A stretch of DNA of 64,000 nucleotides from Lophium mytilinum. Taxonomy: Eukaryota. How positions within the stretch are numbered: position 1 is the stretch's first letter; each line of letters starts with the position of its first letter. Below the pieces are notes generated by a model. It was not told the origin of the DNA. It ran no database searches and worked only from the letters and a program-made list of their open reading frames with translations. The stretch is taken from assembly GCA_010093605.1 (NCBI GenBank), contig MU004191.1, positions 790,816 to 854,815 of the forward strand, in the 5' to 3' direction. The translations under genes and the position numbers were made by a program. Below are positions 1-31,400 of this stretch, piece by piece.

Positions 1-370
1 TATTAGATAGTATTATTCTTAAAATTCTTAAGTAGAAAGAAGTTTAATAGTAGTAGATAGATTATATTATATCTAATATTAAACTTCTTTATTAGCGCCT
101 ATATATATATAGCGCTCTACCTATTATTATATAGGGCGGAATTCTAAAATACTATATTTATATCTAAAGAATAGTTTAGTATTTTTAAGTATATATCTAG
201 TATAGATAATATATTAATAATAGCTACTATAGACTAATCTTTAAACTTAGTATAATAGCTCTTTAATACTTATATTATACTAGAGTAGTATAATATTATT
301 TCTCTAAGCTCTATAAAAAGCTTCTTTATATAATTATTTTAGCGCTTAAATAAGTTAAGTATACCTAAAG

Positions 371-9983: not shown

Positions 9984-10769
9984 TATATATGAAAATAGAA
10001 GCAAGAAAAGATAGAAATATTAAACTTTTAATACGTGAGGTTCACGACGGTTAGACTTATAAGTTCGCGCAGCTTAAGCACCCCGGCCAACTACCTCATA
10101 GCCTTGCTCACCGCAGCGCAAGGATACCTACGTAAACTGGCACCCCATCGCTCTCAATCTGCACTCATCCCCGGGATCTTTCGTCGATCAATTGCCGCGC
10201 TTGCTCGAGTACTGGACGGCTGCGGACTGGTCCCCTTGCAAGGCAGAGCTGGCGTGCCTGAAATAGACTAAGTTTGTGAGATGCGGAACGGATTCGGGGG
10301 CCGATCTATCGGAATGCCGAATTAAGAAGAGATTCTCCCTGCGCGATCAGTGCGTGGCTGTCGATCCTAGGGCTGTGGGGATCGCGGCGCAGTTGGCGAG
10401 GCTGACGGTCTGCGGTTAGTGTTGTGTGATGTCACTGTCGGGCCGAAGCTTGAGAGCACAAGAGAGACTTCAGTTCTTGGAACTTTGAGCACGAGTCGGG
10501 GTGATGATGACATTTACGCGCTGCATTGACTATGAGGAGGATCAGAGACGTGGAAAAGATCCAATTCGGGCGGAGAGGTGACGAGATTCGGATTGGCCCA
10601 GGACGAAGAAGCTTTCGTCAAGCATCTAGGAAGTCGAATAAATTCTGGTGTACCAGGACCTTGATATCGATCACGCTGGCAAAAGGATAGAGGAAGAGGG
10701 TTGAAATCGGGTCCACAGTTTTAGGATCGAGAGGCGGCTCCGAGGTATCTTGGTGGACACTTTGCCCTC

Positions 10770-11545: not shown

Positions 11546-11890
11546 TCACTCACCCTTAACAAACTCTTCCGTCAATCGTACATACTTAATCCGCTGCCTC
11601 CAAAACGTATACGCCACATGCACCGTCCCATCCTCCTCCACCGCTATACTTGGATAACTAATCTCCCGATTCAGCTTCTCCGCCGAGTTATTCGTTAAAC
11701 AAAACCCATCCCCATCCTCCAATATTTTCGTCTCCCACGTCCTCCCCAAATCTCCACTGACACTCACCGTCAACGCCTTCCGCGGCGCACCCCAGAACGC
11801 CTCCTTCGCCACCGTCGCTGGCTGGTTCACCCGCGTATCCTCAGCCGGCGTAATATCATCATACAACCCCTCTCGGCGTGGCATGCCCGA
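11546..11890 (-). pseudogene. 3' fragment of a BNR/Asp-box (sialidase/neuraminidase-like) gene, 5' part missing
   Basis: 112 aa with the Asp-box SGDLGRTW, E-I-S-Y-P-S-I and VHVAYTFWRQRIKY, typical of the C-terminus of fungal BNR_2 beta-propeller proteins. An in-frame TGA lies three codons upstream of the Met, and no N-terminal part was seen in the window. Confidence 0.8.
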
Positions 11891-12067
11891 TCAAAGCCTT
11901 TCGCTCGGCTCCTATTCCGAGCCTTCTGTTCGACTTCCCCCAAACACATTCGGGCTTCCTCTTCACTCGAACCATCAAGACGGCTCCGTACCGTCAGTGA
12001 CCAGTCCTTTGCTAAGTCTCACACATAACTAGTTGCTCGGCATCTCGTCCTCGTCGTGGAACGAAGA

Positions 12068-14347
12068 ATGGCGCCAACGGTCCTCGACCAACACACCTTC
12101 GCAGGTGATACGGCGTTCTGGGAACAGGTCCGCGATGGGTTCATCCCCACTCTGCCGGGCAACACGGGTCCAATCCGTGCAGGATACGGATACAAAGCTA
12201 TCAGGTTCTGGAAGAACGAAAAGGACGGCGTGGTGATATTCCCAGAGACAACGCAGGGCCAGATCATCGAGCTTGGCAAGGATTCAAGATACGTCAAGGT
12301 TCATCTACCCGATCTGGGAAAGAATGGATGGGTCCCGCGTGATCGCATCGTGTGTGGGACCGTCCCATGGGGAAACTGGAAGATCAAAGCGGACCTAGTT
12401 ACGCCTGGGACCATCAAGGTTCCACGGGTACCAGGCATGCCCAGCACGAGTTCTCGAGTCTACAAAGCCATCAGCACATTCCTAGCGACACTTGCTGTGT
12501 CTAGGACATCGCTACTTTTCGAGAAGTTCTACGAACTCGTTGGTACGAATGGGGAGAAGATTGCCTCGCTCACTAACCTCGTGGTTGAAGGAATCAAGAA
12601 AGCGAGCTTGTTTGACGTGCTCAACACGCCTGATTTCACAGTCAAAGATTTGGTTGACAACAGCCGCTATCCGGATGCCTCCAAAGCGCCAACTACAATT
12701 GCCGGAATATATTTTCGGGCAATCAAAGATGCCAACGACGAAGACCACTTCTATATTGGGCATACCAATAACCTTCCTTCGCGTGCACAAGGGTACAAGA
12801 CCGATACGAACAATCCGAAGGGGAAGGGTTATCACATGGATTTGTCAGCAAAAGCCAAAAAGATTGCGATGTGTGCGCTCTGCATTCTCCCTCAGGATGT
12901 CGACACTGGCATTCGATATCTTGTCGAACAGATCTTCGTATGTCTATTTGAAACCTATCGACCCACTTTATTCAGAATCTCTGCCGGCTACATCAGCGCT
13001 CGATTGCTTGCCGACGACCCTGGCAGGATCGTCCAATTCCAATATGCTGTGTATCTCACTAGGATCGCAGAGATTGCCGCTGCCGATAGCGGTTGGAAGG
13101 GTGCAGTAACGAGACCTGGGTTTGGGGCTACTCAAGGCGTCAATTGGCTGTCGCCTCTGTACGAGATGACGACAGGCCAAACGCACGAAAGGGTGTTATT
13201 CATCCGGTCGGACGGGACAGTTCAGGACCCTACTTCGAAGGAGCTCATTCCTGTTGCGAATTTCCGAAGAGCAAATGCGAGGTCTACTAATTGGCACGCA
13301 GCATCATCTGCAACTACTAGCAACAGTCAGGTCTTCATCATCTCAGAAATCGGCGATACCAAAATCAGTAACCCGCATACTACTGAAGCCAATGCCGCCG
13401 CCAGCTCTAGCGGGACCGACTGGCCCATCCAAAATCAGCCGTTCCATGTTGTGTACGAAGTGCGCAAGGACTGGAAATTGCATCCATATCCTTGGGCTCG
13501 CGTACCATCTATTGGCCCCTTCATGGACTGGGAGCGTGCGAACAGCTTGGGAGTGCGCCTGGAATGGCAAGACGCGAAGAAGCAGTGGCGACGTAGGTAC
13601 CTTCAAGTTGGATCCAAATCCCATCACGCTCTCGACGACAAATCACCCGGGTCTCTGAAGGCCTATTCAGATGGCATGACCATCATCCACTTCCTGTTTC
13701 GAGAGGATCGAAACGATCATCGAGGTTGGGTAACCGACGCAGGCTTTGCCAGAGTCAAGCGGGTTAGAATGGACTGCATATCTCAGACCATCCAGTTCCT
13801 AGATCTCACTGATGTGCTCAAGCCCGCTGTCAGTATTCAGCGTAAGCCTGCTTCCATCATCAAACAGCAAATGGAGGATGATAGCTTGGAACTCGAACAC
13901 GTTGGCGGAGTTGTCGGGGGCATGGATGAAGGTGGTAGGACTTACAAGAGGACACTCTGCGACACCTGCGTGTTGTTCGGAAAAAGAGGTTCACAGAAGG
14001 GGTGCAACCAGGCTGAAGGCACGAACAGCAAGGTCTGCAGTCTCTGTTATTTTACCTACGGCAGGCCATTTTGCTCTTTCACAGCGGGCGTCATGAGACA
14101 ATCAAGTTTGCATAAAACTCCAGCGCTCGAAGCTATCAACCGTAAGCGTGTAAGCGCACTGACCCAGCTGGAGTGGGAAGTTGATGCTGAATTGGGCGGC
14201 GATCCGGATCTGCAGAAGCTCGAGATCGAGGTCGAGGAGTTGGAAGAATATGATGCAGCGATAGCGGAAGCGCTGGCAGAGGCGGAGAGGGAAGAAGAGG
14301 CTGTTGAGGAGGCTGGAATATATGAGAATCCGATCACTGGAGCCTGA
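12068..14347 (+). CDS. Orphan multidomain protein: SH3-like N-terminus, GIY-YIG nuclease-like domain, C-terminal Cys6 cluster, acidic tail
   Basis: Uninterrupted ORF (first ATG 12068; an upstream exon is possible via AG at 12032). Motifs: GWVP; GIY-x13-YIG...R...E...GVN (12704-13144); C-x2-C-x11-C-x10-C-x2-C-x8-C (13958-14074). Confidence 0.75.
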   Translation: MAPTVLDQHTFAGDTAFWEQVRDGFIPTLPGNTGPIRAGYGYKAIRFWKNEKDGVVIFPETTQGQIIELGKDSRYVKVHLPDLGKNGWVPRDRIVCGTVPWGNWKIKADLVTPGTIKVPRVPGMPSTSSRVYKAISTFLATLAVSRTSLLFEKFYELVGTNGEKIASLTNLVVEGIKKASLFDVLNTPDFTVKDLVDNSRYPDASKAPTTIAGIYFRAIKDANDEDHFYIGHTNNLPSRAQGYKTDTNNPKGKGYHMDLSAKAKKIAMCALCILPQDVDTGIRYLVEQIFVCLFETYRPTLFRISAGYISARLLADDPGRIVQFQYAVYLTRIAEIAAADSGWKGAVTRPGFGATQGVNWLSPLYEMTTGQTHERVLFIRSDGTVQDPTSKELIPVANFRRANARSTNWHAASSATTSNSQVFIISEIGDTKISNPHTTEANAAASSSGTDWPIQNQPFHVVYEVRKDWKLHPYPWARVPSIGPFMDWERANSLGVRLEWQDAKKQWRRRYLQVGSKSHHALDDKSPGSLKAYSDGMTIIHFLFREDRNDHRGWVTDAGFARVKRVRMDCISQTIQFLDLTDVLKPAVSIQRKPASIIKQQMEDDSLELEHVGGVVGGMDEGGRTYKRTLCDTCVLFGKRGSQKGCNQAEGTNSKVCSLCYFTYGRPFCSFTAGVMRQSSLHKTPALEAINRKRVSALTQLEWEVDAELGGDPDLQKLEIEVEELEEYDAAIAEALAEAEREEEAVEEAGIYENPITGA

Positions 14348-14770
14348 ACTCAGGTAAATTCCTCTACCTTTTGCGTTGATCAGAGGGAACATGCGGATGG
14401 AAGGAATGGGGTCCTTCTACGATATCTGCGGTTTTCTTTTCTTGGTTCTGACTTGGTCTCAACACCATTATTGAGGGGTTTCCTCTTTTTTTTCCATCTT
14501 TAGAGGCCTGTGAGCTGGGAATTTTCGACATGCGGTAAATCAAGCCCCATGTTTGAGCTGAATAGCAGTTCAACACTGCTCTTTCTTAGATAGGCCCTTA
14601 TTGATAGGGTTCACGAACAATCTCCAAATATGCCACACTTCAGGTTTTAGAACATACGTTAGGTACCCCACACAATGGCAGAGGACTACTAACTGCGGGC
14701 TACGGCCTCAAGAAGCTTTGACTCGTAGATCCTCATGTCGATCTATCTAAACTATAGACTCGGCATCCTC

Positions 14771-15146
14771 CTCCGCACCTACACCGTCGATTCGTGTAGC
14801 TCTATACAGCTTAGAATTGCAGTTATTCAGACCCTTCACTGACTCCCCCACACGGGGCAAGGCATACTCCGCTCTTCTTTCCAAGAAACATGTTGAGGCT
14901 TGAACAATCTGGAGAATATCTCTTGGCGGTTTGCTGTGGCTTCGGCTTGCACAGCGAAGCACACGGACTTCCCGCCGGTGTGTAGCATCGTGGGACGATC
15001 TTGGTCTGATATGCGGGGAGGAGTCGGGGTAGTAAAGCTGGGGAAGGACTAGTGGGGTTAGTGTGCCCTGTTGCCGAGTGACAATTTATCTGGAAAACTG
15101 CAGCCGACAAGATGCACGCTGTAAGCGATTAGTTGCATATAAAAGC
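14771..15146 (+). promoter_or_regulatory. Transporter promoter with clustered CreA/Cre1-type SYGGRG sites and a TATA-like box
   Basis: SYGGRG on either strand at 14771, 14846, 14867, 14909, 15013, 15038 and 15052; TATAAAA at ~15139. Confidence 0.5.
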
Positions 15147-15305
15147 CCCATAATATCCATCCTGGCTCACCAGGCAGTATTTTCTCAACCTCAAGTGTCT
15201 TGTTCTTGCTCGTCTCCTCCATCTGTACTTACGATTTGCATTTTTTCTGCCATATTATCTCTTACCTCCCTTATCGTCGGGTAACCCGTCGCAACATCTG
15301 CCAAA

Positions 15306-17170
15306 ATGGGTGGTGGAACCTCATTGTGGGCGTCTCCCGATTACAAAAGAGATCCAAAGGAGATCTTCAACCCGAAGATATTCTATCTGGCTATTACTAT
15401 CGCTTTTGCCGGTTGCTCCTATGGTTTCGATCGTAAGCTCCCCCGGTGCGTCTACAACAGTATGCGCGCCTGCTAATGATTTCCAGAGGGAAACATTGGT
15501 GGTGTTCTCACGCTCGAAAGCTTCAAACATGCCTTCGGGCTTGATAAGCTGAGCAAAGATGCCGCAGATCAGCGGGCTGGAAATATTGCAGCGATGATGG
15601 CTGCTGGAGGATCTGGAGGCGCACTGCTTGCGGCCCCATGTTCCGATTACCTGGGCCGTAAATACAGTATGATGCTGTTCGGTGCTTTCTACCTCATCGG
15701 CTGCACGATGCAGGAGTTCGCAGACCTTGGAGGTACGCAAAACCGCCCTCAATGATGACTACTGGTAGGACTTCGCTGACATGCAGATACAGTCTTCTGC
15801 GCCGGCCGCTTGATCGCTGGCATTGCCATCGGAGGCATGAGTATGCTGGCCCCTCAATACCTCGCCGAGAACTCGCCGAAGTCGATTCGTGGATCCGTGA
15901 CATGCTTGTACAATCTGTGCATCATCCTAGCTCTATCTCTTGCATTCTGGGTATGTCGAAAAATATTAGCCATGCGTAGGACAATGAGACTAACACGCAC
16001 AGGTTAACTACGGTGTCAGCAAATGGGTCCGCGAAGCCATGGATACATGGAACCTCCAATGGAAACTGGCCCTCGGTATCCAGATCATCCCAGGCGGTTT
16101 CATGTTCCTCATGATGCCGTGGGTAGTGGAGACACCTCGTGCGCTGATTGCACGAGGCAAAAGAGAGCTCGGGCTGAAGAACTTACTCATTCTGCGAAAC
16201 CTCCCAGAGGAGCACCCGTATGTTCAGCAAGAGTACCTCGAAATCTGCGCGCAGGTCGACCATGAGCAAGAGGCGACAAAAGGTAAGCATTAGTTCCCAG
16301 TCCTTCTAGTTTCCAATCTAATCACGAATAGGCCGTAATTACTGGATCGTCATCAAAGACATCGTCGGCGTCCGAAGCAACACTCGCCGATTCTTTCTCG
16401 CTACTACGCTCTTCTTATTCCACAAATTCACCGGCACCGACTCGCTCAACTACTTCGCCCCCGAAATCTTCACCATGATAGGAGTAAAAGGCGGCTCGCA
16501 AGCCCTTCTAACCACCGGAGTCTACGGCCTCGTGAAGCTAGCAACAACGGTTGTCTACGTCGCTTTCATCGTGGACCGAGTTGGGCGCCGCCTTCCACTC
16601 ATCATCGGGGCAATCTTGCAAGCCACTTCCATGCTGTACATCGCCCTCTATGTCCGCTTTGGAAATCCTGACTCTGCAAAGGGTACCGAAGCCGGCGGCA
16701 TCGTTGGTATCATCTGGATCTACATCTACGCCTTTGGTTGGTCTTTCGGGTGGTCCGTGGCGCCCTACGTCGTGGCCGCTGAGATTTTCCCATCCCGCAT
16801 CCGCTCCGTCTCTATGTCTTTCTGCTTCTTCATTAACTGGATCGTCGACTACGGCATCACAAAGGCGACGCCTAGTATGATGACACATATGGGCTGGGGA
16901 ACATTCCTGCTCTACGCCATCTTGACGTATGTCGGTGCGGTGTTTGTGTTCTTCTGCATGCCGGAGTTGAAGGGGAGGAGTATTGAGTCGATGGATGATT
17001 TGTTCGAGCACTCGATTTGGACCATGTACAAGCGTGCTTATCCGACCGAGGAGGAGAAGGTCAGGCACGATGTCCCGGATCTTGTGCACGCGGATATGAT
17101 GGAGAAAGAAGAAGGCTTGGATAAGAATGGTGGACAGGTTCAGATTGAGAATGTCCAGAGCGAGAGATGA
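15306..17170 (+). CDS. MFS sugar porter (quinate/sugar-acid permease-like), multi-exon
   Basis: Spliced translation MGGGTSLW...FAGCSYGFD, SDYLGRK, AENSPKSIRG, VETPR, VDRVGRR, AEIFPSRIR and PELKGRSIE (Sugar_tr signatures); GT-AG introns with branch sites. Confidence 0.92.
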
Positions 17171-17496
17171 TGAAGACGGAGAGGCGAGATCGAGGTACTG
17201 AGAATTGATGTGCATATGATGAGTTTCCATAAGACGAACAGCCCCACTCGATAGTACATAGCGATGTCTGAACGTGTAATGAAATCTGACGTATGACTAT
17301 CCATGGCTTTGAGGACTCCGGGAAGTGTCCGTGCGTAAAGGGCCGTGTTTGGAGATGGTGAAAATGGTCCGGCGTTCTCGCCGGGTAGAAGGGCGTTATT
17401 GAAGATGAAATGCATAAATATTAGAAACCTATATGGTCTCCTATTACCACAAATCTAATATCATCCTAAACCCGAAAGCTCTAAACATTCTTCATT

Positions 17497-18634
17497 ATGG
17501 TTGCCACGATGAAGCTGAATACTGGAGCCGAAATCCCCGTAGTAGTGAGTGTTAAAATCAACCATTAGAGCTTTAGCATCTGATAATCTGGCTAGGGATT
17601 TGGTACATGGCAAGCGGCCCCTGGGGGTTAGCAATTCATGATTTGTAAAGACGTCCCCCTACTAACACCGACGTAGAGGCTGGACGGGCTGTGAAGATTG
17701 CCATAAAATCTGGCTATAAACACCTTGTAAGTTTCATAATTAGTCCCGATGCCCTCCAGAGCGTTAATTGACCATGATGTAGGACTGTGCTCCACTGTGT
17801 AAGTAGCAGTTCGATCCAGCGAACCTGGCCAAGAGTTTCAAAAATCTGACCCATCCAGACTGGAACGAGAAAGAGATCGGAGAATCCCTAGCAGAGACGC
17901 TCAAGGAGACATTGATACCACGCTCTGAGCTCTTCATAACCACAAAAGTGTGGTCCTCACAACACTCCCAAGTCGAAGCCTCACTCCGCCGCTCACTAGC
18001 GGACCTCCAACTCGATTATGTCGACCTGTATCTCATGCACTGGCCCATCTCCCTACCGCCCAACGACGCCACCGCCGCGAACTTCGGGAAAGAGGACCGG
18101 ACGACCCATGCCTCGGACTGGGACTTCACGAATACCTGGGCCGATATGGAGAAGCTCCTGGCTACCGGCTTAACAAAAGCAATCGGCGTCGCCAACTTCT
18201 CGACTGTGAACCTCGAGAAGCTCCTAAAGACAGCAAAGGTGGTCCCGGCTGTCAACCAGACAGAACTTCACCCGCTGCTACCTCAGGACAAGCTCAATGC
18301 GTATTGTCAAAGCCACGGTATCCATCAGACCGCGTTCGGACCCCTCGGGGGCAAGGGTAGCACGCTGCATAGCCACCCGGTTGTGCGGGAGATCGCAGAG
18401 AAGAGGAAGGGCAGCGCAGCGCAGGTGATGCTGTCGTGGGGCGTGGCGAGGGGGTGGAGTGTTATTCCGAAGAGCGTGACGGAGGAGCGGATTAAGAGCA
18501 ATCTAGCGATCTTCGAGCTGAGCGCGGAGGAGGTTGGGAAGCTGGACCAGCTGGCGAAGACGGAGGGGAGGAGGTTCAATAGGCCGAATTGGGGGACGAC
18601 GGTATTCCATGATGATGATGAGAGTGTTGCGTAG
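17497..18634 (+). CDS. Aldo-keto reductase (AKR1/GCY-YPR-like), several short 5' exons
   Basis: Spliced MKLNTGAEIPVV|GFGTWQ...GYKHL|DCAPL|YWNEKEIG, then LFITTKVW, DYVDLYLMHWP, AIGVANF, VNQTELHP and VIPKSV. Confidence 0.92.
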
Positions 18635-19238
18635 TTACCTGGGATGGTGTTGGGGAACTGTGTGGCCAAAAGTTACGCGCTGCGGTCGGTTAAAGTTGCT
18701 CTTTCTAGAATATTCTAACGAGAATGCATCTCCTACCCGCGAACAACCCCCAACTCTTCTTCTGAGGACATTTCTGAAGCTCGACTAGGCGTTCGACTCT
18801 ATCCTAACCTTATGTGTACTTATCACAACAAGTCTTTCCTTTTGGAAATGTGAAGTAGCAACGAGTATACTAGACTAATGAGACCTTCACGTCGTTTCCA
18901 TTCATTAGTAGTCAGCCATACGGACCTCTGCGGGACTGAAAGACACAAGTTACAAAATCACATTCGCATGAATATACTATCCAATCTCTCCCGATATTCT
19001 CATCTAAGGATGACCTTTGGCCCAGACTATCGACTATTTCTTAGTTCCAACCTCATTATGACGTCTAAGATCCGCGGCTGCTGTGCGAAAACGATGAAGA
19101 GAAGGTTACGCATGGGATATTTGGAATAGAGGGGCAAGGAATAGGTACATGAAGAACCAGGAAGCCGTTAATATCTAATCTCTCTATCAAACTGCTTCTC
19201 CTTTCAGATCTTCTTCCTTTTCCCCCTTTCATCACAAA

Positions 19239-20439
19239 ATGACCAAAACGCTCGACATGTCCACTTCCAAAATCCCAAAGGTGGGAAATCGCACCACTCT
19301 CGCCCCATCCATTTCTTCTTTCCTCAAACACAACCCCTCCCTTCACCTCGGGGGTGCAGACGCGTTCACAGATGAGCGACGCCACCATACCGAAGTTTTT
19401 GGCATTCATGCTTTGCCAAAGGAGAAAGTGCACCCAATTCATGAGGTAGAATTCACCGCAGTCCGAGGGCCCCATGGTACGATACCCGTGCGGGTGTTGT
19501 ATCCTAAGTCAGGAGAAGAAAGGAGGAAAAAAGGGGAGGCAGCTGCGCTCGTCTATTTCCATGGAGGTGGATACACGGTAGGAACCGTGGACGAGTTCGA
19601 GAACGGGCTAAGACAGTTGGCAGAAGAGAGTGGAGTCCAGGTATGAATCCTTAAGTCGGAAACCTGACCTCATCTTCCATATATCCCTTGACATGAAAAC
19701 TCAATACCCGCAGATCTATGCTATAGACTACCGTCCAGCTCCCGAATTTGCTCATCCCATGCAGCTCGACGAGTACGATGCTATCATCTCCTGGCTGCGT
19801 TCCTCAGAAGGGAAATCCCGTGGAGTGTCTTCTTCCCTCATTTGCGGCGGGGGCGACTCAGCAGGTGGCAACATGACGGCCGCACTCTGCCTCCGCCGTC
19901 AAGACCACAAGCTTCCTCCCCTAGCCGCCCAGATCCTCCTCTATCCCGAAGCCCGCCTGCCCTTCGACACGCCCGCTGCGTCAGAGAACAACTCAGCCCT
20001 CTATCTCGAATGCAATGGGATCTTCTCCTTCGCCTACCACTACCTCCCGCGCGGCATTCCACCAGCGCATCGGTACATCCCACCCGGGATGCAGGAGATC
20101 AAGGACTTGAAGGGGCAGCCGAAAGCGGTAGTGTGTACCGCAGGATTTGATCCATTGAGGGATGTGGGAGTCGAGTATGCGAGGAAGTTGGAGGAGGCCG
20201 GGGATGTTGTAGTTTGGAGGCACTTTGAGAGGTTGACGCATGGGTGGTTGCAAATGGGGCCATGGAGTGAGGAGGCAGAGAACGCTATCAAGGATTTGGC
20301 GAGGGAGGTTAAGAAGCTGGTCTATGGTTACATTACAGGCCCTGGGGAAAAGTCTATGTATCTTTCTTGGCTAATGTTCAGACCCCTTGAACCCTTTTCA
20401 AAAACGATTAAATGCTCTCAATCGGCTAGTAGCATTTGA
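19239..20439 (+). CDS. Alpha/beta hydrolase fold-3 (HSL-family) esterase; one intron ~19642-19713; C-terminus uncertain
   Basis: YFHGGGY oxyanion motif, GDSAGGN nucleophile elbow, FDPLRD acid residue and HGW histidine. Confidence 0.9.
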
Positions 20440-21052
20440 ATTTCTTCAAATTTGGTGTAGTGTTGTATAGCCTTCCATATTAACCTAAGCAAAATCTATA
20501 TTTGAGCTAGAATTAATCTCTAGATTGTCTTTACCTAGGCTGATAGAGTAACTAGAGATGTCGAAAGAAGGTGAGAAATAAAATTAGAGAAAGCGTGGTT
20601 TTCCAAAGAATCAGCCAATCAGAGGTGTTAGGTTTCTCATACAGCATGGAAAAGCTTCGCTCAACCTTCCTCCCACCAATATCCCACCTCGGTCATCAAC
20701 GCGCTCTGTTTGGTTCTTATAGATACAGAACTTGCAACATATCCTCTGTATCGTACCTCGACTCTGGTTTTGAACTTGTTCGAATGTGAGATGTGACTCT
20801 TTCTACCACAAGCCGTCTCTACCGACCGGGCCTCCACTCTTGACTCGTACCCATGGCCCCGCTCCCTAACCAAACACCAAACTTCTCCAGGGCAGCGGCC
20901 CCGCCTTGTCATTAACCGCGCGCCCAGACCTTGCGGATTCATGAGTCGGCCCGATGATGTTGATCACGACCACCTTCCAAGCGCGCTTCTTCCCCAGACC
21001 TCACTGCCCGCATTTTGCGCCTTCAATGTCTTTGCGTAGCTCCACATCCACC

Positions 21053-23281
21053 ATGGCGAAACGATCGTGGTCCCAGGCGAATGCCAGATCCATCCCAACT
21101 TCTGCGCCCATGGATACCAGTCCTCAGGAGCAGATGTCGCCATCTGCGTCCCGACGGCGGACATCAGAGGCCGCTGAAGCCCACCTGACGTCTCATCCTT
21201 CGATTTCTCGCAAGGTGAAGGCGTGCGCGGCTTGTAGGAAGCAGAAGGTTAGAGTTGACCCCTGATGAAGTTTTGTTTCATGCGTTTACTTGCGACTGTA
21301 GATCAAATGCATCATGGAGAGCGGACCACCCTGCAAAAGGTGCACAGAACGAAATCTGTCCTGTGTATTGAACAAGAGTCTTCAAACTCTCATTGATGAG
21401 CGGTCCCAGTGAGTGTTTCCAGGTTCTCAAACATGTTGCGATCAATCATTTCGACATTTTCCACCGATCAATACGGTCACGTGTCGCAATATATACTGAT
21501 TGAGCCCACAGATGGAAGAATGTTGTAGGAAACGACTTGGAGCAGATTCACTCGGCTCTCCAAGAAGTCCTTAACCGGTTATCACTACCGCCAATTCCTC
21601 GATTACAGACACTCAGCCAGGATAGCCAGGTTCTCTCTCCTCCTGACGAGGTTCTTGACCGTGAAGATCATGGGCCTTCTTGTGACAATTCTCCAAGAGT
21701 CTCGCCGCGAGATGACGCCCTACCCCACGTGCCCATCGAATCGCTGTACCAGATTACCAGACTCCGCGCACTTCGCTCGGATAACCCGACCGAAACTCCT
21801 CAAGTTGCGCATCCCAATGGTGTCAGCCATGTCATCAATGACTTCATTTCGAACGGCCAGCTAGGTGTAGAGGATGCCGAGCGTTTATTCCATCTCTATC
21901 AAAACCGTCTTGACCATTTCATGTACGGGATCGGTGGTAAATATAGGGACCTTGAGAGCCTCCGGAGGGGTTCTGCAATTCTAACAGCTTGTATCTGCAC
22001 AGTCGCGGCTCTCCATGACCCAGGAAGTAACCACCTCTATGGAACCTGCAATCGTGAATTTCGACGTCTCATGGCGGCCTCGATGTTTGACAGACGAATT
22101 GATCGTGATCAACTCAGGGCAATGTGCATCGGATCGTACTGGTTGAGCGACATATCCTGGACACTCTCTGGGTACGCAATACGACGAGCTACAGAAGTCA
22201 GCCTGAACGCAAATTATCACCGTGTCGTAGCAGAGAACAGTGAGGAAGCAGCTGACTGTCTCCGGATATGGTATATTCTCTACATATGCGACCATCACTT
22301 ATCGATACTCTACGGGAGGCCATCCATTGTACGCGAAGATTTCGCCATTGAGGGGTGGGAGGCCTTCCTGAAGTCATCGGTGGCGAACGAGAGCGACAAA
22401 CGGATGATCAGCCAGCTAGCGCTCTTGATTATTCTAAGCAATGTGCGGGAATTGTTTGGTCCGGACAACGGCGAGCAAGTTCCGCGCGCTTTTGCCACAC
22501 AGCTTGCCAATTTCAGTCGCCAGATCGACCAGTGGATGGGAACTTGGAGCACTGATCTTCAACGTACGTTTCTCTGGCATTGCTCTGAACTCGCCACTAA
22601 CAGTTCATAGGACAACACGATTACATTGGAGAATTCCCCACCAAGGGGGTCGTACTACATCATCATTTTGCGAAGCTGCATCTGCACTCTCACATTTTCA
22701 GAGGGCTGAAGAACTCGCCAGTACCCAGTTATTTCCACGATTCCGCTGTCGCCGCAGTGTCCGCCGCGACTTCTATCGTCGAGCTACTTCTCACCGACCG
22801 TGACCTCCAAGACTCACTCGTGGGAATTCCCCACTACCTACACACCATGACTGCTTTTGCCTGTGTCTTCCTCCTCAAGGTTGCAGCCCAGCATAGTGGA
22901 CAATATATCGAAGATGCGGTGGTGTTCGACCTCACGGCCAGGCTGGTCCAGCAATTCCGATCTACGGCAGTAGGAAAGTGGCATCTGGTTCATCTCATGG
23001 CGGATGGCCTCGAAAAATTGGCCGCTAAGGAGCACCAAAAGAGTCCAGCAGCGTATCCGAATATGTTACTCGCAAATGGTAACAGCCACACTACGATGCC
23101 ATACATGAATGGTGCAGACCATCCTTCCATGAACGGTTTGCCACATGGAGATGACTCGATTTATGGTCCCATGGCTACCAACGGCTTCCAAGACGGAGAA
23201 ATCGATTTCGCAGCCACGCCATTCTTACACTTTGACTCCGCAGGCTTTGACTTCAACTACGCTGGATTCGGGATACTATGA
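21053..23281 (+). CDS. Zn(II)2Cys6 transcription factor with fungal-specific TF middle domain
   Basis: Spliced ACAACRKQK|IKC...PCKRCTERNLSC; RIWYILYICDHHLSILYGRP; start in CCACCATGG context (alternative ATG at 21026). Confidence 0.9.
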
Positions 23282-23328
23282 TATATTCTATAATACCAAA
23301 ACAACCATCTATAAGAGCATGATAATGC

Positions 23329-24315
23329 CTACGCCACAAGACTCCGAGCGAAACTCTCCACCTCCTCGGTGAGCGTAATATCCTCGACCATACCGAGCTT
23401 CTTCGCGAGGCTCGTATCAAACCGCGCAGGCCAACTCCTCACAATCGCCTCAACCTTCACATCCCTCTTCTCCTCAATCAGCGCCAACTTCTCCTTTCCA
23501 CCTACCGCCTCAAGCGCTTCTAATATCTGCCCCACCGTCACTGTCTGCCCAGGCAAATTCACAGTCCGCCCCCGATTCACCCCAAACGCCTCCTTCGGCA
23601 CATCCTTCATCGCCACCAAATTCCGCACCACCGTGCTCGGCGAGCACACCCACATCTCCAAATCCTTACCCACCGGCAAGATGCTCTTCTCTCCCTTCAA
23701 CGGCTCCCGCACTATCCCCGACGCAAACGACGACGCCGCCGCGGAGGGAGCGCCCGGCCGCACAATCACAGTCGGCAGACGCACAACACGCCCATCTATC
23801 AGCCCCCGCCGCGAGTAATCCGAAACCAGCGTCTCAACAATCAGCTTCTCGGCCCCGTAACTGCTTTGCGGCACTGGAATGGTCCGCTCGCTGACGACCT
23901 CGCCCAGCTCCAATGGAGGCCCGTACACAGCCAGCGAACTAGGAAACACGACCACAACCCCGGGTTGGTGCCGGCGCAGGTGGTCCAGCACTAGTCTGTG
24001 CGAGTCGATGTTCACAGCCAAGCCGAGTTCGAGATTTGCTTCTGCGCCCCCGGACATGATGTCGTGGAGGAAGTAGCATGCCGCGAACTTGGGCTCGAGC
24101 AACGCCGCGCACGCGTCCGCGGATGTGAGGTCTGATTTTACGGTCATGACGCGGTTGGCGTGCTGAGGGGAGGGGATTGCGGGCTGGATCACGTCGGCGA
24201 GGATGAGGTCGTAGGTTGGGGAGGCGTCGAGGAGGGCGGCGGCGAGGGCTTGGCCGATGAAGCCGCCGGCGCCTGTGATTAGGATCGTGTGGGATGCGGG
24301 TTCGAAGGAGCCCAT
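23329..24315 (-). CDS. NAD-dependent epimerase/dehydratase-family (extended SDR) protein, D-erythronate dehydrogenase (DenD)-like
   Basis: ILITGAGGFIG, IMSGGAEANLELG, SSLAVYG, PQSSYGAEK (YxxxK), DYSRRGLIDGRVVRLPTV.VRPG.PSAAASSFASGI.REPL, and SWPARFD. Confidence 0.85.
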   Translation of the reverse strand: MGSFEPASHTILITGAGGFIGQALAAALLDASPTYDLILADVIQPAIPSPQHANRVMTVKSDLTSADACAALLEPKFAACYFLHDIMSGGAEANLELGLAVNIDSHRLVLDHLRRHQPGVVVVFPSSLAVYGPPLELGEVVSERTIPVPQSSYGAEKLIVETLVSDYSRRGLIDGRVVRLPTVIVRPGAPSAAASSFASGIVREPLKGEKSILPVGKDLEMWVCSPSTVVRNLVAMKDVPKEAFGVNRGRTVNLPGQTVTVGQILEALEAVGGKEKLALIEEKRDVKVEAIVRSWPARFDTSLAKKLGMVEDITLTEEVESFARSLVA

Positions 24316-24860
24316 ATTCGCGGGTTTGGCTAGAGAATCGGATGGACGGTATAGCGGGTTTGCAAGTGTGTTTGGAGCTATAGGAGGCGGAAGTGGGTAG
24401 AGAGGGAGGGAATCGTGATATGGAATTGGATTGTGGAAGTGGCTTGTTTCCTTCCCGGAACAAATCGATGTTGGTATCTATTTAGCCTGGCTACGCTTAC
24501 CCACGGCAATGGATTCCGTCGTATCTGCCGTCGAGTCTCTCTTTGCACATCTATTGCCCCGCAGGTGTGAAGACCGCGTTGCGGGGCGCGACGCGTTGGG
24601 GAGATGGCCGGTGGAGGGGAGCATGTTGGTTCGGGGAGAAGGCCGATGTGTGGAGTTAGGGCCGATGCTGCGGCCGCTAGTGATATGCACTCCGGACCGG
24701 ACTAGGGATGATGGAGGCACCGAGCTTGGGTTGGGGAAGGGTGATAACATGGGTGTATAGTGGGGAGGTAACGCGGGTATACTTCTACGTCTTCTGTTAC
24801 TTTTGCTAGCATTTTTGAAAGTTTGGCGAAGATTACAGTTTCGCGCAATCTTGAAACACC

Positions 24861-26055
24861 ATGTCAAACAAGATGGAGTATATGCGCCTCGGGAATAGTG
24901 GATTGAAGGTGTCGAAGATCATATTGGGTGGGATGAGCTTTGGTTCAAGCAAATGGGAGAGCTCGCCGTGGACGCTGGATGAACCGGAGGCGTTGAAGGT
25001 GATTAAGAAGGCGTATGATTTGGGGATAAACACGTGGGTAAGTCAAACTGTTCCCGTGCGAAATTCTATGGCTAAGGAATTGCGCATAGGATACAGCAGA
25101 CACTTACTCGAATGGTGCCTCCGAGCGCATCATTGGCAAAGCACTGAAGGAGTTCAAAATTCCCAGGAGTAAAGTAGTGATTCTCACAAAGATCTTCAAT
25201 CCCGTCATGGATGATGATTCGAGACCTGTGCCGAAGAATGACGGGGTGCTTGTGAATCAGATGGGGTTGAGTAGGAAGCATGTCTTTGAGGCGGTGGACA
25301 GGTGTTTGGAGAGGCTGGGGACGGACTATATTGGTAAAGACCTTATCTTTCGTATAGCAGATAACTTCGCTCTTCCTATCAGTTTCTCTTCCCTCTTCCA
25401 GCTCAACTTTTTACATTTCCCGAGACATCTTAAGTGACTGTTAGGGACTAACAACCCACCAGACGTCCTCCAAATCCACCGCCTCGACCGCGAAACTACC
25501 CCCGCCGAAATCATGCAAGCCCTACACGACCTAATTCGCTCTGGAAAGGTCCACTACACTGGGGCTTCCTCCATGTACACCTGGGAATTCGCGCAGCTTC
25601 AACACGTTGCGATCTTAAACCACTGGACTCCTTTCATCAGCATGCAGCCCTTCTACAACCTGCTCTACCGCGAGGAAGAACGTGAAATGCTGCCGTTCTG
25701 CCAGGCAACGGGAGTAGGTGTTATCCCATGGTCCCCGCTCGCTAGGGGTCTATTGGCGAAACCACTGGACGAGGGAAGTGCAAGAAAGGAGGCAGATGGA
25801 AAGGCGAAGGCGTGGTTTGGGGATGCAAATATGGAGATTGTGGGGCGGGTAGAGGAAGTGGCGAAGAGGAAGGGGGTTAGTATGGTATTGGTGGCTACGG
25901 CGTGGGTATTGGGAAAGGGGTGTGCACCGATTGTAGGGTTGAGCAGTGAGAGAAGAGTAGAGGAAGTAGTGGAGGCTTCAGGGGTGAAGTTGAGTGATGA
26001 GGACGTGAAGTACCTAGAGGAGGAGTATCGAACAAGGAGCATTCAGGGAATGTAG
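24861..26055 (+). CDS. Aldo-keto reductase (aryl-alcohol dehydrogenase / YajO-like), 2 introns
   Basis: MEYMRLGNSGLKVSKIILG, GINTW|DTADTYSNG, GLSRKH, QIHRLD, GASSM, MQPFYNLLYREEEREM, IPWSPLARG. Confidence 0.92.
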
Positions 26056-26523
26056 ATGTAATTGCAGATGGACAGGTGAATCTCGGAGACTTCGAAGTGA
26101 GTAGGAGAGCGTGTAAAACTCGCTCCGAAGTTTTCCGTTTTGCGAGCGTGCGGCAGTGAGCCCCTGATCGTTCATTCTACCCCTCATGTCGCTTTCATGA
26201 TCCAGATATGCCGTTCGAGGGCCTCTTCGACAACACCAGATTTCAAGTTGAGTCTATAAGTTGAGTGTCAAGTCGGAGATCCATGCATGGCCCGGCTATG
26301 CTACGGCAGTGAATCTTTCGCACTTCTGTCCGTTCCCTATTAACCCGAGTCTCCGGGCCAAACATGTGGGCAACGGGGATGCGCATAGCGGGAGCTAAGG
26401 CTTAGACGACTATCTTAAGTATACGTCGAGGCTCAAATAAGTATCTATCGTCATTAGTCTACATCTTTACCTTTCCAGCTTCACGTTTCAAAACTTTCAA
26501 TCAAAACTCCTGCACTTCGCAAT

Positions 26524-28087
26524 ATGACGATCTCCGACCCCCAACCCCTACCCCTAACGAGCACCCTATCCTCCCTTCCACCCTTAGAATCAACCTCTCA
26601 ATTCCTTCGCGCCGAAACGCGCCGCCAACTCCAACAAAACCCTTCCACTCCACTACTCATAGCTCTCGATGACGACCCCACCGGCACCCAAACCTGCCAC
26701 GGGATCCCCGTCCTCACCACCTGGTCCATCCCCACTCTTATTGCCGAATTCACCCAAACCGCCCCCGGCAGCGGCTTCTTCGTTCTCACGAACTCACGCG
26801 CACTTCACGCGCCTGCCGCCCGGGCTCTAATCGCCGAGATATGCCAGAACTTGCAAGCGGCGGCCAAAGAAACAGGTAAAGCATTCGAAGTCGTGTTACG
26901 CGGGGACTCTACGCTTCGGGGCCATTTCCCAGACGAGCCAGAGGCGGTAGAAGGGGTGCTGGGGAAAGCGGACGCGTGGTTGCTTTGCCCGTTCTTCTTG
27001 CAGGGAGGCAGGTACACGATTGAAAATGTGCACTACGTGGCTGAGGGGGAGACGCTGGTGCCCGCGGGACAGACACCGTTCGCACGGGATGCAACATTTG
27101 GGTATCGGAGTAGCGATTTGAGGGAGTGGGTGGAGGAGAAGAGCAAGGGGCGGTTGAAGAAGGAGAAGGTGATTAGCTTGGAGCTGGGGGATATTAGGGA
27201 GGGAGGGGCGGAGAGAGTTGCGGATATTGTCTGTGCGATTGAGAAGGGGAGCGGGACGCCGGTCGTTGTTAATGCGGCGGCTGAAGAGGATGTTGATGTG
27301 GTCGTGTTGGGGATATTGAAGGGTGAGTAGTGTTTATGCTGCACGTGAGCGTCACGTGAGAGTTTGCTAATCGGAAATTTTAGCGAGTGCACGAGGGAAA
27401 AAGTTTCTTTTCAGATCTGGGGCTGCGTTTGTATCGGCTAGGTTAGGTATTGATCCCATCCCTCCGATATCTGCAAAGCAACTACAGCTGGATCCTAGGA
27501 AAGGTGGTCTTATCATCGCGGGATCCTACGTTCCCAAGACGACGGCGCAGCTGGACGTTTTGGTCAAGAGGAGTGGTGATAGGCTCACGACAGTGATATT
27601 GGACGTAGAAAAACTCCTGAAATCACCAGAAAGCGCGGAGGCAGCGCTAGCAGAGGCATTAAAAACCGCGGAAACGGAGATCAACAAACCACACGACATC
27701 TTGGTGATGACTAGTCGAAAGCTCATTATTGGCGACGACGAAGTGGAGAGCTTAGATATTGGCTCCATAGTGGCGAAGGTTCTTGTTCAGTTCTTGCAGC
27801 GACTGAAGAGCAAGCCGAGATATGTCATTGCGAAGGTAAACTTCATTCCATACCTGCCGCAACATGCGCTGATGTACTTGAAGGGCGGCATCACCTCCTC
27901 GGACATGGCCACTAAAGGTCTTAACATGAAACGTGCGGAGATCGTCGGGCAGGCTGCAGCTGGCGTTCCTCTTTGGAGATGCGATGAGCCAACTTGCAAG
28001 CATCCCGGTCTACCATATGTTGTGTTTCCTGGCAATGTTGGCTCGAACGACACGTTGTTTGAAGTCGTAGATAGGTGGAGGGTGTGA
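26524..28087 (+). CDS. DUF1537 four-carbon acid-sugar kinase family protein (OtnK/DtnK-like), introns 27323-27383 and 27836-27883
   Basis: ALDDDPTGTQT, LTNSRAL, RGDSTLRGHF, PFFLQGGRYT, TPFARDATFGY, IAGSYVPKTT, IAK|GGITSSD and VVFPGNVG. Confidence 0.9.
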
Positions 28088-28421
28088 CACTTTGAAGATT
28101 CGAAATGAAAACTAAATACGATATCAAAGAGTATATCTATGCAGCACTACTTACGAAACTTACCGAGTCTTTCTACCCACCTTCGCCGTCCTGCTCCTTC
28201 AGTATCCTTTTCTACCTCGCCTCCCTCTCCTCCCTCTCCTCAGCTAGCGCTGTGCCACTTCTGTACCCGCCAATCGTGGAATGTACTCCATCACATCCAA
28301 TCGTTGTTAAGGAACATGGCCCAACATCAGGCCTCGTATACGTACACATGCAAAAAAGGTTGGTCCGAGTCTCTCGCCATTCTGGAGGTGCCCTGGCTTG
28401 CTGCTTAGTCCCCCCATTCTA

Positions 28422-31400
28422 CTACTTTCTAGCTTCTCTTGGGGCGTTCCGCCGCTTTCTAGGGGGGTTTTCTGCTTGAAGGTCAAAGTGTGGATCAACT
28501 TCACCGGTTCCCTGTCCTGCTTCTACCATGGTTCGCTTACGCTTTCCCGCAGCGCGTGTGTTGGAGCCTTCAGCCCCAGCATTAAGAACTATTCCTGGAT
28601 TCAAGACCACCGGTAATTGAGTATCGATGGGCGCATTTCTTGCCGCCTCCTCCGCCTGTTGTCTTTGATTGAGAAGTCTCACAACGTCTTGTGCTAGCAG
28701 ACGGTCTTGTCTTCCTCGTGCCTCTTCTTCTTGACGCATACGTCTTTCTCGTGCCTCTATTTCTCGACGCTCAAGTCTTTCTCGTGCCTCTTGTACTTGA
28801 CGGCGACGGCGCTCATCAGGTCGCTCCATTATCCTATCATAAGCTTCCGTTTTAGGGTTGAAAACTCTGCGATGCCAGTAGCCGCCGTCTGCCTGGGACC
28901 ATATCCAAGAAGGTGGGCGATTTGGGGGTGCCTTTCCCTTCTCGACGCTTCCTGTCTCGCCGGCAGCGCGTCTCACAACCTCTGTTGGTCGGTTGGCACC
29001 AGCACCACCAGCTCCCTCGTTCCTCTGGTTGGCAACAGCCTGGGCAGCCTGTTGATGTTCTCTCCACCCTCCAACAAAGCCGTCGGCGCTACCTCTCGCG
29101 GGTGACTGGGCAACTCGTATTGCACCTTCGCCTCCTCCATTGGCACCGGCGGGGAGTTCTTCGGAGTCTATGATGAGGTCGTCCAGGGCGAAGAAGCCAA
29201 TGCCATCCCCTCCCTCAGTCTCTGTAGGAGGTCCTCCAGGACTCATTCCATTGAAGTTTTCCCGAGACCTAGCCAACTCTTTCGCTTCAGCGTCGGGGTC
29301 ATTTGGATCTAGGTTGTCGCCTCCGCTGCCTCCTCTCAGCACTCCTTTGCCCCCTTTACCCCCTTTGCCCCCTTTGCCCCCTTTGCCCCCTTTGGCCCCT
29401 TTGGCCCCTTTGGCCCCTTTGGCTCCTTTTGCCCCTTTGCCCCCTTTGCCTCCGCCGCCTCCGCCACCTCCGCCGCCTCCAGAACCGTCGTCTCCGTGAC
29501 GCGCCGCACGCCGACCGATACGGAATGTATCTCCTGGGAGGTGAAGTATACGAAGGCATTCATCTAGGTCATCTCTTTTCTTGCCTTTAGCCGGTGTCTT
29601 GTTCTCCCAGTCCACCAAGGCCCTTCGAGTTTCTATCAAAACGTCCCACAAGGATGGCCTGATTCGCGGCTGTGCATTTTGATCATAACTCAACGAGTTC
29701 ATCATAAGGGTCGTTAGACGTGTGGAGTACGTGTCCGCGTACTCGCTAGGGTCTGGAGGATCGTATGCGTTCTTATATTCGTAGCCCATTTCTTCGAAGC
29801 TAGGTATGAACGGGACAGGCTTAATAGTTCCGTCGCTGTTGGTATTGTATCCCCTCCAGTCATTTGGATCTCGCCAAACACGCTCGAAATACTCGAAGTT
29901 TCTCTGAGCTCTCCGATCTCTATCCCAGTCGGCCTGCTCTGGCTTAGCGTCATATGGGTTGTCGAACCTCGCTTTTTCAGGCAAGCCATCAGTTCGGATC
30001 ATGCCAGAGGAGAGACGAGTCATTGACCAAATGATCATCCCAATTTCCCATACCATGGTCCGCTCTGTAGCCTGTGTTTCCGGTGGTGCCGGTGCCACCA
30101 GTGGCTGACCATTATACCCTAGGATATACCTATAGGCCCAACCGAGGTGTTGTTCCTAGATTTCTCAATTAGCATTCTAATGTCGACCTACCAATAAGAG
30201 GACAACGGAATACTCACCGGTGAAGCATGCTCCCAAGTGCCTCCAGAGCATATATCCAAATCGTTGTCCACCATTCCGAAATCTGCCAATATTGGAACCG
30301 GATATCCTCGATACGTAGTATCACGGTCACTCGGCGTATCGAGAAGAACATTTTCGGGCTTAATGTCTACGTGTACTCTGCTTTTCGATTCACTACGTTT
30401 CACGTAGTCGGACTTTGGATATTCATGTACTGCGCCGTGTGCCAGGGTTCCGCCGCAATACAATACCCAGCACGCCTCGGCCAATGCGTTCCAAACGTAC
30501 CATACGAACACCTCAGGGAAGTAGATGGGTCTAAGCAGAAGTTAGCACGTCGCTTAGGATATACCGAAAAGGCAGCAATGGGATCTAGACTTACTCCGGT
30601 GGATTTTTCGTCGAAGACTTTATGTACTTTTCGAGGAGGTCGTCGAGAGTTCCGTACTGCGCAAAGTTCATATACGTAGTCCTAAGAGATGTGTTAGCTC
30701 GCTCTCAGATGAATGATATACGGGTCTACTTACCAAACATTGCTTGTTATTGCCCGGAGGGCCTCCTCGGAGTGGACTAAACCCCTCACTCTAGGGATAT
30801 TTTTGTGCTTCCAGGGTATAGTTTGACGAAGGATCTCAAATTCTTTCGGCTCGCCATCAACTGGGTTAATAGTCAAGTCATTTCGCGCTGGGACTACGGC
30901 TGGATTGCCAGGGATAGGATAACTTTCTCGCTTCCTTGCCATGCGCTGATATACATCGACCTATGAGTTAGCAAACTGAAGACTTCGCTGATGTGAATAA
31001 CTTACGTCCAGAATCGTGCCGTTCGCATTATCGACATAGACCCAAAGATCAACTACGCCAAAACCTCCTCTCCCAAGTTCCTTCGCGTACTGCCAACTTC
31101 CAGCTGGGAGCGGGATCAAATTCGGTAGTGGAATTAGAGGTGGGTTTTGTGGTGATGTAGGGTTGTTTAGAGTTAAAACAGCTTCTGGTCGTGCGACTGG
31201 TACAGGTGGAACTACCGGTTGAATTACGGGTTGAAGTGCTGGTTGGACTGCTGGTTGAACTACCGGTAGAACTGGTGGTTGAACTACCGGTAGAACTGCT
31301 GGTTGAACTACCGGTTGAACTGGTGGTTGAACTACCGGTAGAACTGCTGGTTGAACTACCGGTTGAACTGGTGGAACAGCTGGTAGCGCGGCATCAACCG

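Follow-up and report, generated by a model that had tools for sequence, protein, structure and literature searches.

Two routes for the catabolism of four-carbon acid sugars have been described in bacteria. In the four-step route (Zhang et al. 2016 PNAS), LtnD or DenD is followed by OtnI, the kinase 3OtnK and 3OtnC, which has an Aldolase_II fold. In the three-step route for L-threonate and D-erythronate (Guo et al. 2024, BBRC 695:149440), LtnD or DenD is followed by 2-OtnK, whose Arthrobacter representative has been characterised in vitro, and by 2-OtnC, which has an F_bP_aldolase fold, and no isomerase takes part. Both DenD and LtnD are reported to produce 2-oxo-tetronate (PMC12994016, PMC13753588). 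The LTD protein of Arabidopsis (At1g18270) unites two LtnD domains, a kinase and an F_bP_aldolase domain in a single chain, and is described as needed for L-threonate metabolism (PMC12540250). In the ltd mutants L-threonate builds up and the dehydrogenase activity towards it is absent; this acid and related ones are major products of ascorbate breakdown in plants, and the same account presents no assay of what the later domains of LTD act on (bioRxiv 10.1101/2025.05.18.654769). The stems 'fung', 'yeast' and 'eukaryot' occur in neither version of the LTD paper, and a literature search brought up no publication describing the pathway in fungi, in agreement with the first-pass annotation of this DNA, which had known of no characterised fungal equivalent. 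Annotation pipelines already name some fungal proteins 'D-erythronate dehydrogenase' or 'L-threonate dehydrogenase'. The present study concerns a cluster of seven genes at nt 15306–28087 of a 64,000-nucleotide stretch of Lophium mytilinum contig MU004191.1 (positions 790,816 to 854,815; the whole stretch is referred to below as the window), which may encode such a fungal version.

All seven gene families that had been placed in this interval by the first-pass annotation were located there by Pfam searches, from the ATG of a sugar porter (nt 15306) to the final base of the stop codon of a DUF1537 kinase (nt 28087). In order, they are a Sugar_tr porter, an aldo-keto reductase (AKR1), an esterase, a transcription factor, a short-chain dehydrogenase/reductase (SDR) on the minus strand, a second aldo-keto reductase (AKR2) and the kinase. 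The window is fungal, with short GT..AG introns and closest protein matches in Dothideomycetes. On balance, we lean towards reading the locus as a catabolic cluster, conserved in Pezizomycotina, that acts on four-carbon acid sugars. The likeliest substrate is D-erythronate, which would be degraded via a eukaryotic, isomerase-free three-step route; the function is deduced from sequence comparison.

The grouping recurs in other fungi and is therefore more than a product of chance. Among the best 120 rows of each search, SDR and kinase orthologues showed 59–94% identity throughout, and the named rows were all fungal. Locus tags of the DenD-like dehydrogenase and the kinase are adjacent in Neofusicoccum ribis and have a single gene between them in Paraconiothyrium brasiliense, Didymosphaeria variabile and Paraphaeosphaeria sporulosa, so that the two are neighbours (adjacent or next-but-one) in at least four named fungi. 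Among the matches listed, they lie on equal-sized contigs in 14 named species, one of these contigs being only 23,862 bases in length. Metagenome contigs were also scanned with an alignment of 12 fungal kinases, which gave 80 loci. Two of these, L007 and L008, are a near-identical pair representing a distantly related fungal cluster. They carry a kinase (53–56% identical to that of the window), a porter (44–65%), AKR1 (64%), a regulator (33–37%), AKR2 (50–62%) and a DenD-like gene (57–59%), along with an intact BNR_2 gene, in a gene order that differs from that of the window (tblastn, Pfam). The cluster is thus conserved for six of the seven genes. The exception is the esterase, for which no tblastn match was found in any of the 80 related loci and whose membership is doubtful. 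Co-location in other fungi, put forward in the first-pass annotation as a check, is seen for the six genes together in L007/L008 and for the triad of DenD, AKR2 and kinase in many Dothideomycetes, but not for the esterase; the accompanying proposal that ester hydrolysis is a step of the pathway finds no comparative support.

Other genes accompany the shared ones in L007 (nt 900–8915) and L008: along with intact BNR_2, these are a gene of the DHDPS family (pyruvate aldolase-like), placed immediately ahead of AKR1, and one with FMN_dh and Cyt-b5 domains that resembles flavocytochrome b2. They hint that a larger 2-keto-3-deoxy acid sugar may be the source of the tetronate in that cluster.

The SDR has an epimerase-type Pfam match (2.4e-19; nt 23329–24477, minus strand), is identical to database protein P0001 (328 residues) and shares 74–77% identity with proteins of Zopfia, Lophiotrema and Corynespora. 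It is divergently transcribed from AKR2. Its translation shows GxxGxxG and YxxxK, which we take to be the usual motifs of this family. Against the NCBIfam model for D-erythronate dehydrogenase (NF043036) it scores 332.5 bits, marginally above the cut-off of 325. This cut-off is reached by 12 of 15 fungal orthologues, the scores of all 15 spanning 323.6–361.2 bits and the remaining three lying at 323.6–324.5. The protein is 40–49% identical to bacterial DenD encoded in canonical otn clusters, and its nearest bacterial relatives are true DenD. Of the nine loci annotated, six hold a 3OtnK equivalog with OtnC, OtnI or LtnD. No tblastn match to the fungal-type kinase was found in any of 80 bacterial DenD loci, and the fungal combination of a DenD-type dehydrogenase and a kinase of LTD type appears to be new relative to the bacterial loci sampled. 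The cyanobacterial genome G001, which has the closest bacterial DenD outside a kinase cluster, encodes an LTD-type kinase of 37% identity; by tblastn, no LtnD, aldolase, OtnI or OtnC adjoins this kinase, which is uninformative.

The kinase carries SBD_N (1.1e-49) and NBD_C (1.2e-34) domains over nt 26458–28087 by Pfam, reads through in frame once spliced, and shares 73% identity with fungal orthologues. One orthologue, P0122, was searched against 1.84 billion representatives and gave 3083 relatives. Apart from P0241, a stand-alone kinase of fungal type (61%), its best matches are multi-domain proteins according to Pfam, with architectures LtnD x2-kinase (57%), LtnD-kinase (56%), kinase-AKR (55%) and LtnD x2-kinase-F_bP_aldolase (51%), followed by further kinase-aldolase or LtnD-kinase-aldolase forms at 45–51% identity. 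Proteins of about 1100 residues with two LtnD domains and a kinase (52–60%) are found in many Leotiomycetes and Sordariomycetes and in some Dothideomycetes. Those of about 1375 residues that include an aldolase domain are the LTD proteins of land plants; their kinase domains are 50–54% identical to the fungal kinase orthologue. In the fungal-like metagenome locus L006, a single frame of 1138 residues encodes two LtnD domains and a kinase; against NF043037, the model for L-threonate dehydrogenase, the LtnD portion reaches 633 bits. In all, LtnD-like domains are fused to, or lie directly upstream of, the kinase in L004, L006, L010 and L011. Other fusions seen in the kinase lineage (P0317, P0351, P0490) are cyclase-kinase (697 residues), a SASA sialate-O-acetylesterase-like domain with a kinase (930 residues) and kinase-MFS_1 (968 residues, an Aspergillus floccosus gene model).

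A maximum-likelihood tree of 61 kinase domains (LG+G4, rooted on four 3OtnK sequences) was calculated, with the Shimodaira–Hasegawa-like approximate likelihood ratio test (SH-aLRT) as the only measure of support; this tree and that of DenD are quick searches without bootstraps. All 23 fungal kinases (10 stand-alone, 3 AKR-fused and 10 LtnD-fused) form one clade (SH-aLRT 100), which is sister to plant LTD and the other aldolase fusions within a joint clade of 33 rows (SH-aLRT 100). The 23 stand-alone metagenome kinases, in which no introns were seen and which are presumed to be bacterial, fall outside the joint clade, and the branch to 3OtnK measures 3.07 changes per column. By these relationships the kinase is of an LTD or 2-oxo-tetronate-kinase-like lineage and not a classical 3-oxo-tetronate kinase, in a comparison that covers plant LTD and 3OtnK. 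This differs from the first-pass annotation, which had regarded it as the counterpart of OtnK/DtnK. When five orthologues were compared with the NCBIfam models, two matched 3OtnK (NF043035, cut-off 350; 26.3 and 30.8 bits) and three gave no match, four gave 56–72.6 bits on DtnK (cut-off 450), and all five gave 23.9–33.6 bits on OiaK (cut-off 700). Phylogenetic trees were also used for the test of horizontal transfer that had been proposed earlier. The fungal sequences group together in both trees, 15 fungal DenD-like proteins forming one group against 44 bacterial sequences (SH-aLRT 100). The DenD tree is unrooted, so the direction of transfer cannot be inferred from it, and the kinase tree shows no sign of a recent bacterial origin.

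In fungi, a single kinase lineage is therefore seen to be tied to two unrelated dehydrogenase families, to LtnD by fusion and to DenD by neighbourhood, and in plants the lineage is fused to the decarboxylase of the three-step route. This is the strongest argument available for an oxo-tetronate as the substrate of the kinase and for the triad as a catabolic unit acting on a four-carbon acid sugar, most simply D-erythronate. Like the bacterial three-step route, the window pairs a 2-dehydrogenase with a DUF1537 kinase in the absence of an isomerase, and its kinase lineage is joined to F_bP_aldolase in plants and in other proteins. Unlike that route, it has no F_bP_aldolase gene, has a Kv-beta-type AKR as the conserved partner, and is a eukaryotic, intron-bearing system with a Zn2Cys6 regulator. 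The resemblance to Arabidopsis LTD lies in the sister-clade position of the fungal kinase and in the existence of fungal LtnD x2-kinase fusions. The differences are that the kinase of the window stands alone, that its partner is an SDR of DenD type instead of an LtnD-type enzyme, and that the aldolase domain (PF01116) is listed in no fungal-named row among the long homologues of the kinase. With the four-step route the window shares a homologue of DenD, but the fungal kinase is not 3OtnK, and OtnI and Aldolase_II genes are absent.

Gene content, splicing, neighbourhood conservation, family placement and fusion architectures were established directly; substrate, order of steps and regulation we infer as follows. 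The Sugar_tr porter would take up the acid or a precursor of it, which AKR1 and the esterase (the latter not being a conserved member) may trim, for example by aldehyde reduction or by lactone or ester opening. The DenD-like SDR would then oxidise C2 with NAD(P)+ to give 2-oxo-tetronate, and the LTD-type kinase would phosphorylate O4 with ATP. Conversion of the phosphorylated oxo-acid to triose phosphate would complete the route. No decarboxylase for this final conversion is encoded at the locus; the reaction could depend on a PF01116-fold decarboxylase from another site in the genome, proceed in part by spontaneous decarboxylation, or involve AKR2. The whole gene set would be controlled by the Zn2Cys6 factor.

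No F_bP_aldolase, Aldolase_II or OtnI gene is present in the window. A scan of 11 fungal-like loci likewise found an F_bP_aldolase (PF01116) decarboxylase in none, nor any Aldolase_II or OtnI gene. The first-pass annotation had remarked on the absence of OtnI and of an OtnC or other aldolase, and for the window this is correct. In an isomerase-free three-step route, however, the absence of OtnI is to be expected, and the decarboxylase that would be relevant is one of the F_bP_aldolase fold and not the Aldolase_II-fold OtnC. The earlier description of a fungal tetronate catabolic cluster accordingly stands with regard to the neighbourhood of DenD and kinase and to the clustering of the kinase with LTD and the LtnD fusions, and needs revision with regard to the type of kinase, the expected decarboxylase, the esterase step and the role of AKR2.

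AKR2 had been treated as incidental. It is the middle gene of the DenD/AKR2/kinase triad, has Aldo_ket_red matches in all three exon pieces over nt 24855–26055 (Pfam), and of all the genes has the tightest link to the kinase, to which it is fused in other fungi. Such kinase-AKR fusions are known from open frames and gene models: single open frames in L007 and L016, and a gene model of Microdochium bolleyi. AKR2 is 50–62% identical to the kinase-fused AKR domain of L007, and its translation shows Asp, Tyr, Lys and His residues at what are presumably the catalytic positions. In the fungal fusions the AKR lies at the C-terminus of the kinase, which is the position of the aldolase domain in plant LTD. 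AKRs of the same type adjoin related kinases in 5 of 28 annotated metagenome loci (L033, L046, L066, L071 and L076). When a kinase-AKR fusion was compared with solved structures, matches were obtained in the AKR part only. These are generic (deoxynivalenol-epimerising AKRs, perakine reductase, Kv-beta and YghZ) and suggest no substrate.

The final step may differ in fungi. One tentative possibility, to which we give a modest probability, is that the Kv-beta-type AKR replaces the class-II-aldolase-fold decarboxylase once DenD or LtnD and then the kinase of LTD type have acted, so that the phosphorylated oxo-acid would be reduced and not directly decarboxylated, giving for example 4-phospho-tetronate, or glycerol 3-phosphate after loss of CO2. 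If true, this would be a new enzymatic exit from four-carbon acid-sugar catabolism that is confined to eukaryotes. According to the ApnO paper, part of the decarboxylation of 3-oxo-D-erythronate is spontaneous, and the addition of OtnC left one product profile unchanged.

The porter has a Sugar_tr match in its last exon (nt 16322–17170, E 1e-42), and canonical GT..AG introns yield an open frame of about 550 residues. AKR1 (Aldo_ket_red at nt 17807–18634, 6.6e-38) has DkgA as its top NCBIfam match, at 184 bits and below the cut-off of 425; it is 48% identical to the AKR of L010. The esterase has an Abhydrolase_3 match over nt 19179–20439 (2.1e-35), and its translation shows HGGG and GDSAG, which we take to be its catalytic motifs. 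The Fungal_trans match of the regulator (nt 21504–22610) is weak, at 19.5 bits and below the Pfam cut-off of 23. Splicing, with three GT..AG joints, completes a Zn2Cys6 cysteine pattern that spans the first intron. Homologues of the regulator adjoin the kinase not only in L007/L008 but also in L004, L010 and L011 (31–36%), so that they are present at loci of both DenD and LtnD type.

A number of observations weigh against the reading of the cluster as a D-erythronate pathway. The kinase sequence gave no match to solved structures at E values up to 0.001, and its orthologues reach no characterised NCBIfam DUF1537 equivalog. As no F_bP_aldolase, Aldolase_II or OtnI gene was found in the window or the 11 loci, the pathway as written is incomplete. 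Bacterial DenD proteins score 431–526 bits on NF043036, beside which the fungal margin over the cut-off is slim, and with a score so marginal the substrate could be another acid sugar of 2R,3R configuration. The same type of pathway might act on a C5, C6 or branched acid sugar with C2(R),C3(R), such as D-ribonate, D-apionate or L-lyxonate, or on a plant-wall acid released by an enzyme of BNR_2 type. We regard this as rather unlikely. It would accord with the reported acceptance of D-ribonate, L-lyxonate and other 2R,3R acids by a bacterial D-erythronate oxidoisomerase (PMC13753588), with the porter, which is of the sugar-porter (neutral-sugar) type and no obvious anion carrier, and with the additional BNR_2, DHDPS-family aldolase and flavocytochrome-b2-like dehydrogenase genes of L007/L008. 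It would also accord with the very mixed contexts in which related metagenome kinases (44–50% identical, presumed bacterial) are found, their neighbours including split transketolase with BKACE, PanB-like proteins with TIM barrels, MocA oxidoreductases, tartrate-dehydrogenase-like proteins with a cyclase, and GntR regulators; no single substrate can therefore be ascribed to the kinase lineage. Against this, domains resembling L-threonate dehydrogenase (633 and 583 bits on NF043037) are fused to the nearest relatives of the fungal kinase, the SDR has its closest bacterial relatives in canonical four-carbon clusters with LtnD, OtnK, OtnC and OtnI, and the plant member of the kinase lineage is genetically tied to L-threonate (bioRxiv 10.1101/2025.05.18.654769).

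A different proposal is that the cluster disposes of L-threonate derived from plant ascorbate, the esterase hydrolysing oxalyl-L-threonate esters and the SDR acting on L-threonate or a derivative. The kinase lineage is indeed the one that handles L-threonate in plants, the best protein matches are to Dothideomycetes that include the plant pathogens Corynespora, Bipolaris and Exserohilum, and the window has an HSL-type esterase whose presumed catalytic motifs are intact. However, the dehydrogenase of the window is of DenD type, other fungi fuse L-threonate-dehydrogenase-like domains to a paralogous kinase in what is apparently a separate, dedicated system, and the esterase was not found in the 80 related loci, so that this proposal is considered improbable. 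An even smaller probability is assigned to there being no single pathway at all, the triad alone being a unit, perhaps one that salvages or detoxifies endogenous erythronate, with the porter, AKR1, esterase and regulator as mere neighbours. Documentation from many species is limited to the triad, conservation does not extend to the esterase, and the porter and AKR1 are spanned by an RNA-like contig from which no intron has been removed; yet homologues of the porter, AKR1 and regulator recur beside the kinase in L007/L008 despite the rearranged order, and those of the regulator are also found in L004, L010 and L011 and that of AKR1 in L010. A further reading, in which a neutral sugar would be reduced and then oxidised in the manner of apiose and passed to an apulose-type kinase, had been raised by the split transketolase neighbours and was ranked down after the fusion and tree results. 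The D-erythronate route is retained as the preferred reading.

Several of the metagenome loci deserve description in their own right. In L019, L026, L071 and L076, stand-alone kinases without visible introns lie in operon-like rows with a split transketolase, to which L071 and L076 add a BKACE enzyme, a Kv-beta-type AKR and a TctA transporter; these rows look like an uncharacterised acid-sugar route. F_bP_aldolase genes adjoin related kinases in L031 and L078. The latter resembles a three-step cluster (aldolase, kinase and beta-hydroxyacid dehydrogenase), but its dehydrogenase reaches no more than 175 bits against the model for LtnD. On the eukaryotic contig L001 (nt 5735–9373), a stand-alone kinase of 63% identity is followed by an oxidoreductase with DRL_cat and SAF domains, which would be a third dehydrogenase family beside the kinase lineage. 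A relationship of this gene to ApnO was considered and dropped: it has no NCBIfam match, its PDB matches are only two chains called 'Oxidoreductase', and the terms DRL, SAF and Pfam are absent from the ApnO paper, so that no relation is shown.

Gene models are given in Table 1. Transcript evidence came from one public run (X1, labelled 'RNA? (a guess)'), used as contigs, which covers 72% of sampled words in nt 21000–28200. Its contigs skip GT..AG introns, and the run therefore contains RNA. Such contigs give intron joints and cannot rank expression, thinly covered parts being uninformative. Seven introns across four genes (esterase, regulator, AKR2 and kinase) are backed by spliced RNA-like contigs, including intron 2 of the kinase, and the frames are open once these introns are removed. 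The first intron of the kinase and those of the porter and AKR1 were read from the sequence alone. A lone X1 contig of 4560 bases (nt 14065–18624) is colinear and unspliced across the porter and AKR1, genes that need several introns; it could be antisense RNA, unprocessed RNA or DNA in the run.

Table 1. Predicted genes of the cluster and the adjoining BNR_2 remnant (window coordinates).
Feature	Position	Strand	Structure and remarks
MFS (major facilitator superfamily) sugar porter	15306..17170	+	exons 15306-15432, 15487-15732, 15787 or 15793-15950, 16003-16282, 16332-17170 (predicted)
AKR1, DkgA-like aldo-keto reductase	17497..18634	+	about four short 5' introns, read by eye
HSL-family esterase (Abhydrolase_3)	19239..20439	+	intron 19641-19713, RNA-like joint
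Zn2Cys6 / fungal-specific transcription factor	21026..23281	+	introns 21248-21301, 21409-21511, 22564-22610; alternative start 20954
DenD-like extended SDR, putative D-erythronate 2-dehydrogenase	23329..24315	-	328 residues, intronless
AKR2, Kv-beta/YghZ-type aldo-keto reductase	24861..26055	+	337 residues; introns 25038-25089, 25334-25462, both RNA-like GT..AG joints
DUF1537 (SBD_N + NBD_C) acid-sugar kinase	26524..28087	+	484 residues; introns 27323-27383, 27836-27883
Truncated BNR_2 (Asp-box, sialidase-fold) remnant	11549..11890	-	Pfam 32.6 bits, cut-off 31.4

To the left of the cluster, the Asp-box glycosidase-like remnant reported in the first-pass annotation was recovered as a BNR_2 fragment. 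By tblastn it aligns with residues 287–388 only of the 395-residue homologue in L007 (64% identity). It lies about 1.5 kb past the edge of a block (nt 1–10000) with a G+C content of 0.23–0.25, compared with about 0.5 elsewhere, which resembles repeat DNA degraded by repeat-induced point mutation. Between the remnant and the porter is an open frame of 772 residues (nt 12029–14344, plus strand) with no Pfam match at E values up to 0.01. After the kinase, a frame of 577 residues on the minus strand (nt 28422–30217) has long Gly/Lys-rich and Arg/Glu-rich stretches; a CT..AC joint (nt 30154 to 30217) connects it to exons further to the right, where a protein-kinase fragment is found at nt 33013–33381. 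The genes to the right of the cluster are housekeeping genes, such as those for Rpb1, a TFIID subunit and lipin.

The bacterial routes for four-carbon acid sugars have been worked out, as has, genetically, that of one plant. The fungal version would offer a compact and testable set consisting of a regulator, a porter, a dehydrogenase, a kinase and a reductase. Its missing decarboxylase and the recurrent fusion of kinase and reductase single out the last step as the one to be explained, and the same holds for plants. As L-threonate and related acids are major products of ascorbate breakdown in plants, many plant-associated fungi may feed on them.

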